A stretch of 64,000 nt of DNA from Escherichia coli (lineage in GTDB: Bacteria; Pseudomonadota; Gammaproteobacteria; Enterobacterales; Enterobacteriaceae): the NCBI RefSeq assembly GCF_048403405.1, contig NZ_CP183131.1. One strand, given 5' to 3'. The position numbers were made by a program. How positions within the stretch are numbered: the stretch's first letter is position 1; every line of letters starts with the position of its first letter. Of this stretch, positions 31,001 to 40,000 are shown in pieces.

Positions 31001-34000
31001 AGAACCACTGCCAGACTTCCCAGCGCCTGGCTCTGCGAACCTCAAGATTTACAGTGTCTTTAAAACGAACACCCAGAGCATCTACCGCATCGTAATCCAG
31101 CGCGACCGCCAGCTTTGTGATGGATAAATTCCCAGGGTTGCCCATCGCATACCGGAGAACCTTTGCTTTGGTCTCTGGGTTTACGATCATAACCGGCTCC
31201 CTCCTGAAAAAACGGGTCTTGTCTTTTCGCTTGGAATCCATGTTGCGGTTATGGAACCTGGCAATGCAGTGTTGAAGGCCTGAATCCTCGGGAGGTAAAG
31301 GCACAACAGTTTCGATTTTCATGATTACTCTCCTTTCGGATAGGCCGGAGCAAAGGCCTTTCGGCATTGCCCCGGTGAGTTACTAATGAACCAAAGATGA
31401 AGTGACCATGATTGCGTCTCCGGACATCATTACCGGGAGATATTCGCAAGGCTCATGGCCGCAGCTCTTTTTAGTTCCGTTAGGTGAATAGACAGCCAAT
31501 TGACCATCCATAATGTTGAAGGGCATCCCCTGTTTTTTCGCTGCCGGTGACAGCTTGAGAGTGCCCTTTGCGTCAACCAATGCCGTTGCCCAATGGAAGT
31601 CTTCACCACCGATCACCGGCTGTGATTCATCCACGACTTCGACCATGATTGGCATCATTCCAACCCAGCTCCACAGGCTGTTCCCTAATGCGAGGGCTAA
31701 AGCCTCGAACGCGGGAAAGACTACCGATTGCCCGAGAATCTGGTGGGCAATAGTGTCCGACAGACCTTGGATGAGTTCCTCTGGTATCCCTTTCACTCGA
31801 CAATGTTCTGTCGGTGTAAAGATGCGAGACAACTCCGGCTGTTCTGGATGAACAATGAAAGGTTCGGTACTTCTGCATTTTGCATAGTCCTTACCTATGG
31901 TGCCGCAAAACTCATCGTCGCCAGTCAGAAGCTGGCGAGAGAACCCCTTGCCAGCAGCTTTGTCTCTCAACTCCTTCTCAGCCAGATAGTCAAATGACTT
32001 CCAACGTTCAGAATCGAGCGGAACTGGCTCCAGGATGTCCTGTATGCGACTTTCCTTGGTGCGAACAGGCTGAACCTTCTCAAGTTCAAACCCGTCGATC
32101 CCGTGGGAAAGCGCAACAACACAAAGACGCTTGCGGCGCTCAATAACCCCAAACTCATTGCCGTCGAGAATGCGCTCTTGTAGGGAGTAACCCAACGAAG
32201 AGAGCACCGAACGAATCACTTCCATCGAAGCGGTGTTCTGGTACTCAGGCACGTTCTCAATCAGCACAACGGCTGGGTTTAGCGCTTCTACGAATTGCAG
32301 GAAGTTGAAGAACATGGCACCTGCCGCCTCATGCGATTCGGCAAACTCCAACTTGTTCTTACTGCGACCTGACTTTGACGCGCCGGTACACGGTATGCCC
32401 CCCATCAAAACATCCACCTGTGGTGGGCGTTTGCTGAGATTCACAGCCTGGATTGGCGATTCGATAACAATAGAATCTTCGTTCCAAAGCTCCGGGTTAT
32501 TTGCCAAAGACGAATCGAGATATTTCCCTTCCATCTCCACGGCCACAGATATGGCACTGGCAATTCCCGCCTTGTGAAAACCGGCGTGAATCGCTTTATC
32601 AAGCACACCACCCCCATGAAAGAGGCTGCATACCGAAAGCGATTCTCCATTCTCCAGCTTACTGATAAGCCGGTTGACGCGCTCGATCACTCGCTCTTGT
32701 TGATGGTGAGCAGAGATCACAATTGCGCCGTTACGGATGAACACGCGGAGCATCTCTACACCGTCAAAAACGGTAGCAAGCTCCTGCACGGTCAGATCGA
32801 TGATTGGAGACACCCGGCCATTGCGCTCGCGCTTACTGATGGTGAACTTACCCTCCTCTTTGACGCGAAGCACAACCTGGGAATCTTTCAGCTCCAGATC
32901 ATACTTCATGCCAGGATAGTAACCTTCACGCAGTAGCTTTTGGCCTTCCAGCCAGACGCGCTTCTTGCCTCGATGTTCTCCTAACTTGGTGTTTACGATA
33001 GTAGCCATGAGCTCTCTCCTTTCGGTTGAGAGGCCACTACCGTCCCAATCGGGAAGTAATGGCCCCGATGGGTTTAAAGTGGTTCTCAGTTCACAGCGAT
33101 GCCGTGAGACTGAATGGCATTAGCAAAGCCAGCCATTTGTTCAGGGAAGGTGTAGCGGTTGATGTCCTGGCTGCGAGCCAGATTGACATGCACCTTCTTC
33201 ACCTTCGTTTCGTCAGAGTCGTACTTTTCAAGCGCCAGCTTCTCAGCTTCTTCCGGATCTCGGCCCAGCGAGTAGGCGTAAATCACAGAGGTGAAGCCAA
33301 GTCCTGAGCCGAATGCGTAGACTTGTTTCTCGAAATGGACGTCAGCGAAATAGATGCTGAATCCGGATTTGAGGTTATGTTTTTCCATGATGCACTCCAA
33401 ATAGTTTGGGGGCGCACCACGTCCCGAACCGGGCGGATGCACCCGGTTTAGGGTTAGTAGATTGCTCAAGCTGTTACGCCAGCCTGAGCCTTTATTGCTT
33501 CAAGCACGATCTCTGCTTCCTTGATAGAACCAGTGCTGTACAGCTTATGCAGCACCCGGCCAAGGTTCACAGAGATCTTTTCTTTCACTTGGAGATACTT
33601 GACATAGAAGTCATACAGTTTCTCCGCCTGCTCAAGGTGGGACATGCTCTCAACGGGAATGGTATTCCCTGGATTGCAGTACCACTTTCCGAGCACCTTT
33701 TGTACAAATCCCTCTTTGTCTCCTACGAACTGATTTGTGCCAAACACCCCACTGGTTGGTGAGCGTTGAATAACAGAAATCGGATTCGCAAAGCTGGCAA
33801 GAGTAGTCATAGTTGTGGCTCCATGTTTGTCAGGGAACCACCAGCCCGAGGGGCAGTGATCCCCCAAGGGTTATGTAGAATGCTGTTTGTTTGGGGAGGC
33901 CAGCTACCTCACTATTCACTCTCGACAGAGAGCAAAATCTTGCTTTCCGAGGGGCACAAACTTTCACATGTGAAAGTCGATGCCACTGGGAAAGCAGGGG

Positions 34001-37000: not shown

Positions 37001-40000
37001 CATACTGATGATTTGAACATGGCGTCCTCCATCATAGATGGGGCGCACCATGCTCCCATCAGGGGCCGGTTCGCCCCTGGTTAGGGATTAAGATCAAGCG
37101 TTATCTGCATACCACCAGCTAAGGCGATTGCAATCACGAAAGAAGGTTGCTTCATCAGGAGCCTTCATCATGACCACATCACCTTCGCAGTAGGTGCATA
37201 GCTCAAGCGTTGCTTCATTTTTCCAAAAGGCACTGCACCCCGATTCTTGATACACAACCTCCCATTTGGGATGTCGCAAGTACCGATGGAAGAAATCGAG
37301 AGTGTCACCATAAGGGAAGTTGAAGCGCTCCATCACTGAACCATTTTCTGTCAGTTCAGGTTTAACCTTGCCGGTTTTCAAGCGCTTCTTGATGATGCGC
37401 TGAACCCAACGAAGTCGTGCAAACAGCCGATTGGTGTCTTTCTCGTACCACTGGGGATTACGCTTGCTCCAGTAGAGCTTGGCGAAGATTTCCCCGGACA
37501 AATCCTTCATCTGGTTTTCGTTGAGCTCATCAAGAAAACGTCGAGAAGGTTTGTCGTAGTCAAGAACTGCTTCCAAAGCTGATAGGTTTTTCATAGGGAC
37601 TCCTTATTGCGATTGCGGAGCCCCGTCCCCTCAGGGCTATCGGAGCCCCATAGGGTTAATTAGGGTTAATGGTTGAACGGCGATTTATCGAGGGTTGGTG
37701 AATCGAATGGCTTTACCAACGAAATCGGCCATCAGTCGATTCCCAGTAGAGCTGAAATAGCTCTGCCACTCTTTCCAACCACCAACGGATTCCACCGAGC
37801 TTGGAGACTCGAAGATACCCCAGATACGCATTTCACAACCTCGTTGCAACACTCGGTTTACCTGGTCAACCAAGTATTCCTTGTTCTGCAATGAAGAGAG
37901 GTTGCAAGGCATCTGCATGATCAGCTTTTCAGCTTGCTCGAAGTCGATTTTTTCAATCAACCCCGTGCGGGTATCCACAGAGAATGGAACCACCTGTTGA
38001 CCGTGGTTAGACCACAACCAATGGGTGATATAGATCGGATTAACGCCAACTTCCGCTGGCACCAATACGCTGCCGCAAGACCGCAACAGCCAGACCAGAC
38101 GTAAACCATCGAATCGATCCAGAGACTCCACATCGGTAGTGATGTCATCCTGGTAGATTTCAGGCAGCTTATGTTCGGCGGCGAGAGAGATCATTACGGA
38201 TTTGAGATTGTTCAGATGAGACATGTGTGCTCCTTAAAGTAACTTGGGCACACAGAGCCTGTCAGGCGCAGTGCGCCCTTAGGCTGAGGTTGAATGCTGT
38301 TTGTTTTTGGCGACCAGCTATCGCACGTTTCGCCCTCAGAGAGGACAAAATTCACTTTCTCAGCAACCCTCAATGAAGGCCTCTGAGAAAGTGGGAGGGT
38401 ATTCCCTCCTCACTTTGATTGTTCCACGAGAGCTGTGTGAACAGGAACGCTCAAACTGCCCTTTTCGGGTGCAAAGCTCAAAGACGCATCAACTGCCCCG
38501 TCTTTTCAGTTCTTCGACCAGATGTTCAGGCACCTTACTCGCAGTACAGGCCAGCAATACATCGAGGCCTACCGGCTTGTGAAAGCGCTTATTTGACCAG
38601 GAATCGCCAACTGATGACTTTGCCCAGTCGATTGCTTGCCCAAGACTGTGGAACTGCCGCCTGCCTGTGTATCCCATACGACTATCCAAAGTAACACCCT
38701 GGAACAGTCTCCAGTACATCGGAGGAATGCGCTTAGCAAGCAGTAAAAAAGGCGTCTCCGGCACTGTAGCCCTTCTACCTTTGTTCCGATGATACAAATC
38801 CAAAGATGAATGGAATTGGTTCATAGACTCTCCAAATAAAAACGGCCACCCCCGAAGGGATAGCCGTTTGTCGTTTCACTTCCTGTTAAGCTGCAAAAGC
38901 AGTCAATGACCGCTCCATCAACTTAAACAGTGTGCGTTGCAGAGCTGCCGCATCATCAATGACAATGTTCTTTTGGAACAGTCCTGACACTGCGGTAGTC
39001 TCTACCCCTATGCCGATCACCTCAACATCGCTTCGTTCACAGAGGTCAATCACTGAGCGACATGCCGGGGCGCTTTGAGGCTGCCCGTCAGTCACTACGA
39101 TCAACATTTTTCGCTCTTCACGGGTCTTGGTGAGTTCAAAAGCTGCATACCACATAGCTTCCGCCATAGGCGTACCGCCAGTTGCTTTGAACCCAAACCG
39201 ACCGGCCCGATTCTGAACCGTATCTCCATGCTTCACGACACTGAACACTGGCTGGTTCCGGTTGCCACCAAAAAAGGTGACTGCCGGGTTTACGCCGGGT
39301 ATTGCTTCCAGAGCCATCGAAATAGCCAAGGACGCTTCCCGCGCAATGTCTTGACGCTCCTTTCCATTGGCGGCCTTGTAGGCCATCGAGGAGCTCATAT
39401 CAACCAGGATGTGAACCGCCGTATTAGGGCGTTTCTTGGCTTCCGGCTTGAGGAATACGCGGGTATCACCCGTCACTACACGATGTAGTTTCCGAGCATC
39501 CACACGCTTCCCTGATCGTTGGTTACGGTGAGCAACTCGCTGGCTGGCCTGGACCAATCCGTAGAGCTGCGTTCTTATCTTTGAAGTGGTGCTCTTCACA
39601 TCCCCTACCAGGCTTTTGCCAACAGCAGGGTTGTCCTGGGTGTTCACAGCAGAGCGAACAGTCATATAGCTACTGTCCCCCTTATCTTGAGCCACCCGGT
39701 TGAGCTCGGCTTTAAGTGCATCATGCGCGTCACCACGCAAATCACCGGCACCGGCATTCAGAACCTGCTGGAGCATTTTGGCCGCGTCTTGTTTCGCCGC
39801 GTCAGAATTGCCACCAGCCTGGCTTTGTCCTGCCTTGCTGCCACCATCAGTATCCGACTTGCCTTGGTCGCCCTGTCCTTTCGGATCAGATTTCCCGTTA
39901 GCATCGTCTTGCTTCTGGTCTTTACCTTGCTGATCACCACCATTGGCATCAGGCCCTTGGTTTTGATCGTTACCACTTCCGCCCTGACTGTTCTGAGGTT

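Follow-up and report, generated by a model that had tools for sequence, protein, structure and literature searches.

The stretch of DNA analysed here (the window) comprises 64,000 nucleotides of the Escherichia coli contig NZ_CP183131.1 (assembly GCF_048403405.1), in which two orphan methyltransferase genes, dcm1 (nt. 31383-33008) and dcm3 (nt. 36136-37020), lie on the minus strand. A sequence-only reading of the window had placed both open reading frames (ORFs) at these coordinates, where we also find them. Given its near-identity to typed plasmid records, the window is assigned on sequence to the backbone of an IncC (IncA/C2) plasmid. The region matches 942 plasmid records (732 at >=99% identity), of which 919 are predicted to be conjugative, and many plasmid records show 100% identity over the 8.5 kb around both genes. 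The reference record is typed as IncC, MOBH, and MPF_F, and the hosts of the matching plasmids include Klebsiella, Escherichia, Salmonella, Vibrio, Providencia, and others. One flank of the region (downstream) carries traN, traU, and traC, and the opposite flank a primase, rhs, int, and tus.

Both genes are known from earlier work, in which dcm1 was described as a 1626 bp gene (WP_000201432.1) and dcm3 as a 924 bp gene (Wang, Lou & Li 2019, PMC6555945). WP_000201432.1 is annotated for the 541-aa ORF in the 100%-identical reference record, and the 924 bp dcm3 corresponds to a 307-aa reading at nt. 36136-37059, with gene lengths and accession equal to those published. In pVCR94, dcm1 is vcrx109 and dcm3 is vcrx100 (Roy et al. 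2020, PMC7498323); the third gene of the set, dcm2/vcrx042, is located outside the window. The genes in the window are the same as the published IncC dcm1 and dcm3, with no sequence difference and the same proposed role; the paired orphan methyltransferases are already known, and they were named and their protective role proposed in 2019 (Wang 2019). A literature search by accession number and vcrx name returned nothing beyond the works cited here.

The two genes share one transcription unit of ~12.6 kb that is switched on by AcaCD, the activator at the head of the conjugation programme. The unit starts at an AcaCD box (TTTGCACCCGAAAAGGGCAGTTTGAGCGTT, nt. 38446-38475, minus strand) upstream of a vcrx098-like ORF and likely ends at an intrinsic terminator (AAAAAGCCCTCCTTCGGGAGGGCTTTTTCTTTT, nt. 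25838-25872, minus strand) after a DndC-like gene, with the preceding unit closed by another intrinsic terminator (nt. 38840-38869, minus strand; 13-bp stem and T run) after a VWA gene. The position of the box agrees with an AcaCD site found 224-252 bp upstream of vcrx098 in pVCR94 by chromatin immunoprecipitation with exonuclease treatment (ChIP-exo; PMC4207636 Table S3), and near-identical boxes also occur at nt. 25813-25842 and ~48090-48120. All genes between dcm3 and dcm1, and all those from ~48 kb down to ~19 kb, run on the minus strand. Published RNA sequencing of pVCR94 (PMC4207636, Dataset S1; values for wild type / acaCD deletion / complemented) gave 422 / 1 / 1288 for vcrx100 (dcm3), 501 / 4 / 2677 for vcrx109 (dcm1), and 298 / 6 / 979 for vcrx113; dcm2, at 48 / 31 / 113, is not AcaCD-dependent. 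The common transcriptional array that had been read from the sequence for both methyltransferases thus takes the form of a single AcaCD unit, extending from the box to the terminator and accompanied by published AcaCD-dependent expression.

The product of dcm1 was identified as an orphan C5-cytosine DNA methyltransferase via Pfam, its motifs, an AlphaFold model, and primer mapping. Pfam PF00145 (DNA_methylase) matches residues 127-441 (E-value 1.2e-28; model positions 4-322 of 324) and is also matched by 27/27 Dcm1 homologues. Invariant across these 27 proteins are F130-x-G132-x-G134, the catalytic P206-C207, E251-N252-V253, and R292/R294, and motifs I (FxGxG), IV (Pro-Cys), VI (ENV), and VIII (RxR) line up with the motifs of M.HhaI; by these sequence criteria, Dcm1 is a complete C5-cytosine methyltransferase. 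In the AlphaFold model (predicted local distance difference test score, pLDDT, 86.6), an N-terminal all-beta domain (residues ~1-100) and a linker helix precede the core (residues 124-448), which is followed by a C-terminal beta-rich domain (residues 452-540); Pfam returned no match for either the N-terminal or the C-terminal beta-rich domain. The N-terminal domain resembles two tandem beta units and persists in plasmid homologues with as little as ~36% identity, and the C-terminal domain is missing from many homologues. Dcm1 resembles E. coli Dcm and M.EcoRII in its C5 chemistry and in protection against EcoRII. However, it differs from them in the added N-terminal beta and C-terminal domains and in being orphan, plasmid-borne, and AcaCD-regulated, with a target site that is deduced, and its match to the subfamily model for E. 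coli Dcm is weak (NCBIfam PRK10458; 48.7 bits vs a cut-off of 710).

The evidence for protection comes from the IncC plasmid pKAZ3, in which deletion of dcm led to ~2700-fold more EcoRII restriction from the dcm- donor, and restriction by EcoBI and EcoRV changed little (Dimitriu et al. 2024, PMC11602122). That study does not use the gene names of Wang 2019, and we instead mapped its recombineering primers onto the window. The 5′ homology arm corresponds to nt. 33006-33046 with 0 mismatches, ending in the ATG of the 541-aa ORF, and the 3′ arm corresponds to the end of the ORF with 1 indel and 1 mismatch (recognised on reading the sequence, an ungapped search having missed it). Since the deletion primers map to both ends of the ORF, the gene deleted in pKAZ3 is dcm1, and the published experiment shows that Dcm1 protects the plasmid from EcoRII. 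The window contains 160 CCWGG sites against 145 +/- 12 expected, and this lack of depletion fits protection through methylation, not site avoidance. That Dcm1 methylates CCWGG itself is strongly suggested; most likely, it methylates the inner cytosine of CCWGG-type plasmid sites, which would render incoming DNA refractory to EcoRII-like enzymes.

Considering both genes jointly, we find it likely that this IncC backbone carries dcm1 and dcm3 as orphan genes of one AcaCD unit, with Dcm1 as a protective C5 enzyme and Dcm3 as a probable self-protective DNA methyltransferase. Several observations weigh against this reading. According to the bisulfite data of Wang 2019, CCWGG is unmethylated in V. 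cholerae, and the plasmid-bearing strain has the same sequence preference with a small rise in methylated CHG (mCHG) sites (PMC6555945); methylation is not directly demonstrated in these data for Dcm1 or Dcm3. In pVCR94, transposon insertion sequencing (TnSeq) found no dcm gene necessary for entry into V. cholerae O395, which has a type I system (Roy et al. 2020, PMC7498323). Furthermore, the dcm1/dcm3 region lies mid-plasmid and does not look like a leading region, with no origin of transfer (oriT) located in the window. Given that the dcm genes are ~77-82 kb from position 1 in pVCR94 coordinates, their membership in a leading-region anti-defence island, in the sense of Samuel & Burstein 2024, is doubtful. 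As to the bisulfite data, AcaCD control would restrict methylation to the transfer-competent subpopulation, and the near-absence of new 5-methylcytosine (m5C) in bulk samples may be due to Dcm1 being expressed only in such cells.

Both genes belong to the transfer regulon, and the dcm methyltransferases could instead be mainly epigenetic regulators of transfer, replication, and stability, with restriction evasion as a side effect, a role we regard as improbable. Wang 2019 (PMC6555945) noted plasmid loss during dcm1 deletion and a complete loss of transfer in the triple mutant, even into related strains; however, these experiments included no complementation and no restriction-deficient recipients, and polar effects are likely in a long operon. 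A restriction-independent 10-fold drop in conjugation was seen with another plasmid from a dcm- donor (Dimitriu 2024, PMC11602122), but the effect of the pKAZ3 deletion in the same study was EcoRII-specific, and the dcm genes were dispensable for transfer in TnSeq (PMC7498323). Nature has also provided an interruption of dcm1: in the K. pneumoniae IncC plasmid NZ_CP021956.1, the dcm1 match is split in two by the transposase of ISEc52 (IS3-like), a natural knock-out indicating that dcm1 is dispensable for plasmid persistence.

dcm3 (vcrx100, minus strand) encodes an HxPY-type Rossmann methyltransferase of 294 aa, with the longer 307-aa reading (start at nt. 37059) corresponding to WP_000501488.1. 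Given the placement of a GGAGG ribosome-binding site (RBS) 5-6 nt upstream and that homologues begin at the same MF..SV, we assign the start to nt. 37020 and not to nt. 37059. The protein has a glycine-rich motif I (DPSVGGGS, residues 46-53), a motif IV (HPPY, residues 95-98; nt. 36727-36738) directly after a beta strand, as expected for this motif, and a C-terminal winged helix (~ residues 225-294). Its model (pLDDT 82) displays the Rossmann fold of class I S-adenosylmethionine (SAM)-dependent methyltransferases, and a Foldseek search with it returned M.TaqI, M.BseCI, and an N4-cytosine methyltransferase among the matches. The PADLOC profile MTase_II PDLC03376 matches residues 99-221 only (E 3.8e-13), and the winged helix is DpnI_C/Forkhead-like, matching Pfam DpnI_C (E 5e-4), with no DpnI nuclease domain matched by Pfam. 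Comparison of the sequence to Protein Data Bank chains, as a single sequence and as a profile, gave marginal Forkhead and M.MboIIA matches only. The model points to a SAM-dependent amino-type methyltransferase belonging to a distinct HxPY clade. The literature labels 'cytosine-specific' and PF06044 ('Dam-replacing'/DpnI) for dcm3 are unsupported by the domain and fold evidence, the fold being of the amino-methyltransferase type, and the PF06044 tag reflects the winged-helix part alone. A 'dam' deletion was also made in pKAZ3 and was considered as a possible deletion of dcm3; this was rejected, as the homology arm used for it has no match in the window, and the 'dam' gene is a different one.

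The sequence-only reading had assigned different chemistries to the two enzymes and protective self-methylation to both. The first is borne out for the C5 enzyme by PF00145 and its catalytic motifs, and the amino type of Dcm3 is suggested by motif and fold; the second is upheld for the C5 enzyme through the published pKAZ3 deletion (PMC11602122), and this support is confined to that enzyme. Given its winged helix and its similarity to DNA-methylase profiles, Dcm3 is most likely an orphan enzyme acting on DNA and associated with conjugative elements, and would probably modify DNA in the same self-protective way. Weak Pfam N6_N4_Mtase matches in 23/25 family members (E <=0.1; only 2/25 at E <=0.001) point the same way. 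Other features of the protein weigh against this role. Pfam N6_N4_Mtase is matched in two permuted pieces (E 0.011 and 0.02) that are below significance, motif IV has a His in place of the canonical D/N/S, and no clean new N6-methyladenine (m6A) or N4-methylcytosine (m4C) motif was noted in single-molecule real-time (SMRT) data of V. cholerae with an IncA/C plasmid (PMC6555945). In addition, the best structural matches of the model are not DNA methyltransferases but the tRNA N2-methylguanosine (m2G) enzymes TrmN, Trm14, and Trm11, the closest solved folds.

These features raise the question of whether Dcm3 is an anti-restriction DNA methyltransferase at all, or instead acts on tRNA or rRNA, on the transferred single strand only, on guanine N2 of DNA, or in the regulation of establishment. 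We consider such alternatives unlikely, though by no means negligible. Dcm3 shares only 11-15% sequence identity with TrmN, Trm14, and Trm11 and, unlike these enzymes, has no THUMP or other RNA-binding domain, carrying instead a winged helix that resembles readers of double-stranded DNA (DpnI_C, Forkhead); its motif IV His also differs from their Asp/Asn. The profiles that match it are DNA-methyltransferase profiles, and the missing methylation motif could stem from low expression without AcaCD induction. Orphan methyltransferases reported to be single-strand-specific and tied to plasmid replication, M.EcoGIX and M.BceJIII, are described by Fomenkov et al. 2020 (PMC7736820); Dcm1 and Dcm3 are likewise orphan and plasmid-borne.

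The Dcm3 family is large, comprising 1216 clusters at 50% identity, 128 of these at E <=1e-30. We aligned 158 stretches (150 representatives plus the query), of which 134 cover motif IV; the His is near-invariant, being present in 131/134, and the full HPPY in 102/134. Two putative substrate loops, YRGNC and QHNCxSD, are likewise near-invariant across the family and fall in low-confidence segments of the model. This single fixed set of loops contrasts with the variable target-recognition domains of ordinary type II methyltransferases and counts, together with the His, towards a substrate other than that of an anti-restriction enzyme. A literature search for 'HPPY' and methyltransferase returned Hippo-pathway papers only.

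Homologues of Dcm3 are found in a range of settings. On a Pseudomonas megaplasmid and a Comamonas element, they adjoin ssb/recT/exo, AAA-ATPase, DUF3150, and VWA genes; one lies on a Halomonas plasmid, and on a Pseudovibrio contig the homologue directly follows two Dcm1 homologues (56-59% identity). Further homologues are carried by gonococcal conjugative plasmids of 39-42 kb (64% identity) and a Lacticaseibacillus plasmid (34% identity). For the plasmid-bearing gonococcal strains, REBASE lists an orphan methyltransferase, which may or may not be the Dcm3 homologue, only as 'putative', and this leaves some room for a different substrate. Conversely, the constant company of Dcm3, namely DNA-transaction and anti-defence genes of conjugative elements, argues for an enzyme acting on DNA. 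No neighbour is conserved throughout the loci compared (Pseudomonas, Comamonas, Halomonas, Pseudovibrio, gonococcal, and Lacticaseibacillus). The sole neighbour that recurs with Dcm3 across elements is a 117-aa protein (nt. 34002-34355, minus strand), with homologues of 168 aa (E 2e-23) in Comamonas and 150 aa (E 7e-11) in Pseudomonas, each beside the Dcm3 homologue; vcrx099 does not recur.

An orphan status presupposes that no cognate endonuclease is encoded nearby, and the sequence-only reading had reported no endonuclease-like gene adjacent to either methyltransferase. We searched every ORF at nt. 25871-42056 against PHROGs and PADLOC and approximately half of these against NCBIfam, together with larger ORFs elsewhere in the window, and used precomputed Pfam matches for genes within 10 kb of dcm3. 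In agreement with that reading, no ORF tested with these four libraries matched a restriction-endonuclease family, a negative result limited by 13 ORFs of 63-188 aa (nt. 30263-38824) without family assignment. The only nucleases found were a lambda-Exo-type recombination exonuclease (nt. 42244-43254) and a DnaQ-like exonuclease (nt. 6993-7862). Among the larger ORFs elsewhere, NCBIfam identified Tus, the DnaQ-like exonuclease, a Xer-like integrase, insertion sequence (IS) transposases, and Rhs, with no restriction or methyltransferase genes.

It is conceivable that dcm1 and dcm3 supply the modification function of a cryptic restriction-modification (RM) or defence system, with the nuclease hidden among the small unassigned ORFs or in the DndC-like protein that ends the operon, a proposal close to the 'mobile RM barrier' of Wang 2019 (PMC6555945), where a mini-Tn5 entering the triple mutant was taken as a sign of barrier loss. 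We give this very little credence. Besides the lack of a nuclease match among the tested neighbours, the genes around dcm3 show no conservation from one element to the next, except for the 117-aa protein in Comamonas and Pseudomonas. More directly, plasmids tolerate deletion of the methyltransferases as well as the natural IS insertion in dcm1; with a live cognate endonuclease this would not be possible, and a cryptic partner is therefore disfavoured. Among the alternatives to a protective role for both enzymes, another substrate for Dcm3 carries the most weight, followed by a regulatory role and, lastly, a cryptic endonuclease partner.

The remaining genes of the AcaCD unit (all on the minus strand unless noted) are of mixed character. 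The first is the vcrx098-like ORF (nt. 37685-38224; 179 aa), followed by a vcrx099-like ORF (nt. 37094-37594; 166 aa) directly upstream of dcm3, neither of which has a family match, and directly downstream of dcm3 lies a YfaE-like 2Fe-2S ferredoxin (nt. 35846-36070; 74 aa). RefSeq annotates an 80-aa ORF (vcrx104) on the plus strand at nt. 34633-34875, antisense to the unit and overlapped by a 107-aa minus-strand ORF (nt. 34673-34996); vcrx104 is essentially unexpressed in pVCR94 (15 / 0 / 48; PMC4207636). Given that neither of the two overlapping ORFs has a family match, the annotation of the gap at nt. 34633-34996 is uncertain.

The last gene of the unit encodes a vcrx113-like, DndC-like PP-loop protein (nt. 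25871-28324; 817 aa) with SSGKDS and CGARFGCWAC motifs. It matches PADLOC DndC (E 1.4e-41) and NCBIfam TIGR03183 (E 1.3e-34, below the cut-off of that model), with nothing returned by Pfam; no DndA, DndD, or DndE partner lies nearby, and the C-terminal ~350 residues have no assignment. The protein is a candidate third DNA-modifying enzyme beside dcm1 and dcm3. In this plasmid, an IS3-family insertion on the plus strand (nt. 28469-29622, element ~28330-29640; orfA nt. 28469-28753, orfB nt. 28810-29622; NCBIfam transpos_IS3, E 1.3e-100) separates the DndC-like gene from the vcrx112-like ORF and splits the unit; in the reference record, which lacks the insertion, 87 bp lie between these two genes. 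With the insertion in place, the DndC-like gene is probably no longer coupled to the AcaCD promoter.

A neighbouring AcaCD-dependent unit, the 'hde' operon (vcrx089-090 with ssb/bet/exo; window ~42244-46879), has demonstrated anti-restriction and anti-CRISPR roles (PMC7498323, PMC11602122). It shares the plasmid and the AcaCD dependence with dcm1 and dcm3, but its mechanism is not methylation, and vcrx089-090 act in the recipient. In the Pseudomonas and Comamonas elements, Dcm3 homologues travel with 'hde'-type genes.

We also noted a repeated element of two hairpins (~90 nt) on the gene strand, all copies of which that were placed against ORFs are intergenic. Seven copies occur on the minus strand (nt. 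22611-22637, 30099-30125, 33881-33907, 38295-38321, 42127-42153, 46962-46988, and 48005-48031), found at <=3 mismatches where 0 are expected, with a degenerate copy near nt. 25750 and further copies at L005:1584-1609 and L005:9910-9935. The order of the element is a variable hairpin, GUG, a 4-bp stem with the invariant loop UAGCUGG, and C-NN-AAACAAACAGC; the stem is 100% paired, with compensatory changes in 3/5 pairs. The copy at nt. 38295-38321 lies in the 5′ untranslated region of the AcaCD unit and those at nt. 33881-33907 and 30099-30125 lie inside it, two of the element-bearing gaps being where the dcm3 and dcm1 sub-operons begin. It is also conserved in the Comamonas element, with one copy directly upstream of the Dcm3 homologue. 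Rfam at gathering thresholds gave no match in the window; a sub-threshold RT-14 match for one copy (E 0.014 in a 171-base search) was gone in a 30-kb search and was dismissed as chance. Roy et al. (2020, PMC7498323) described an RBS-sequestering structure upstream of vcrx089, which may be part of one copy of the element. The element could act within AcaCD transcripts, as a signal for RNA processing, antitermination, or translation, or it could serve as a strand-specific signal on the single strand being transferred.

With regard to the wider Dcm3 family, the HxPY proteins form a large, uncharacterised group on unrelated conjugative plasmids, from Enterobacteria to Neisseria and Lactobacillaceae. 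It is a rather doubtful idea that Dcm3 represents a biochemically distinct HxPY clade of nucleic-acid methyltransferases on conjugative elements with a fixed, non-canonical target, which the invariant His and substrate loops could set. If true, that target (guanine N2, as in the enzymes nearest to it in structure, or the single strand that is transferred) would differ from sequence-specific m6A/m4C, and it would be because of this that no motif has been assigned to Dcm3. For the IncC plasmids themselves, the AcaCD wiring of both methyltransferases would limit methylation to prospective donor cells. These broad-host-range plasmids are major vehicles of multidrug resistance, and the crossing of restriction barriers contributes to the breadth of their hosts.

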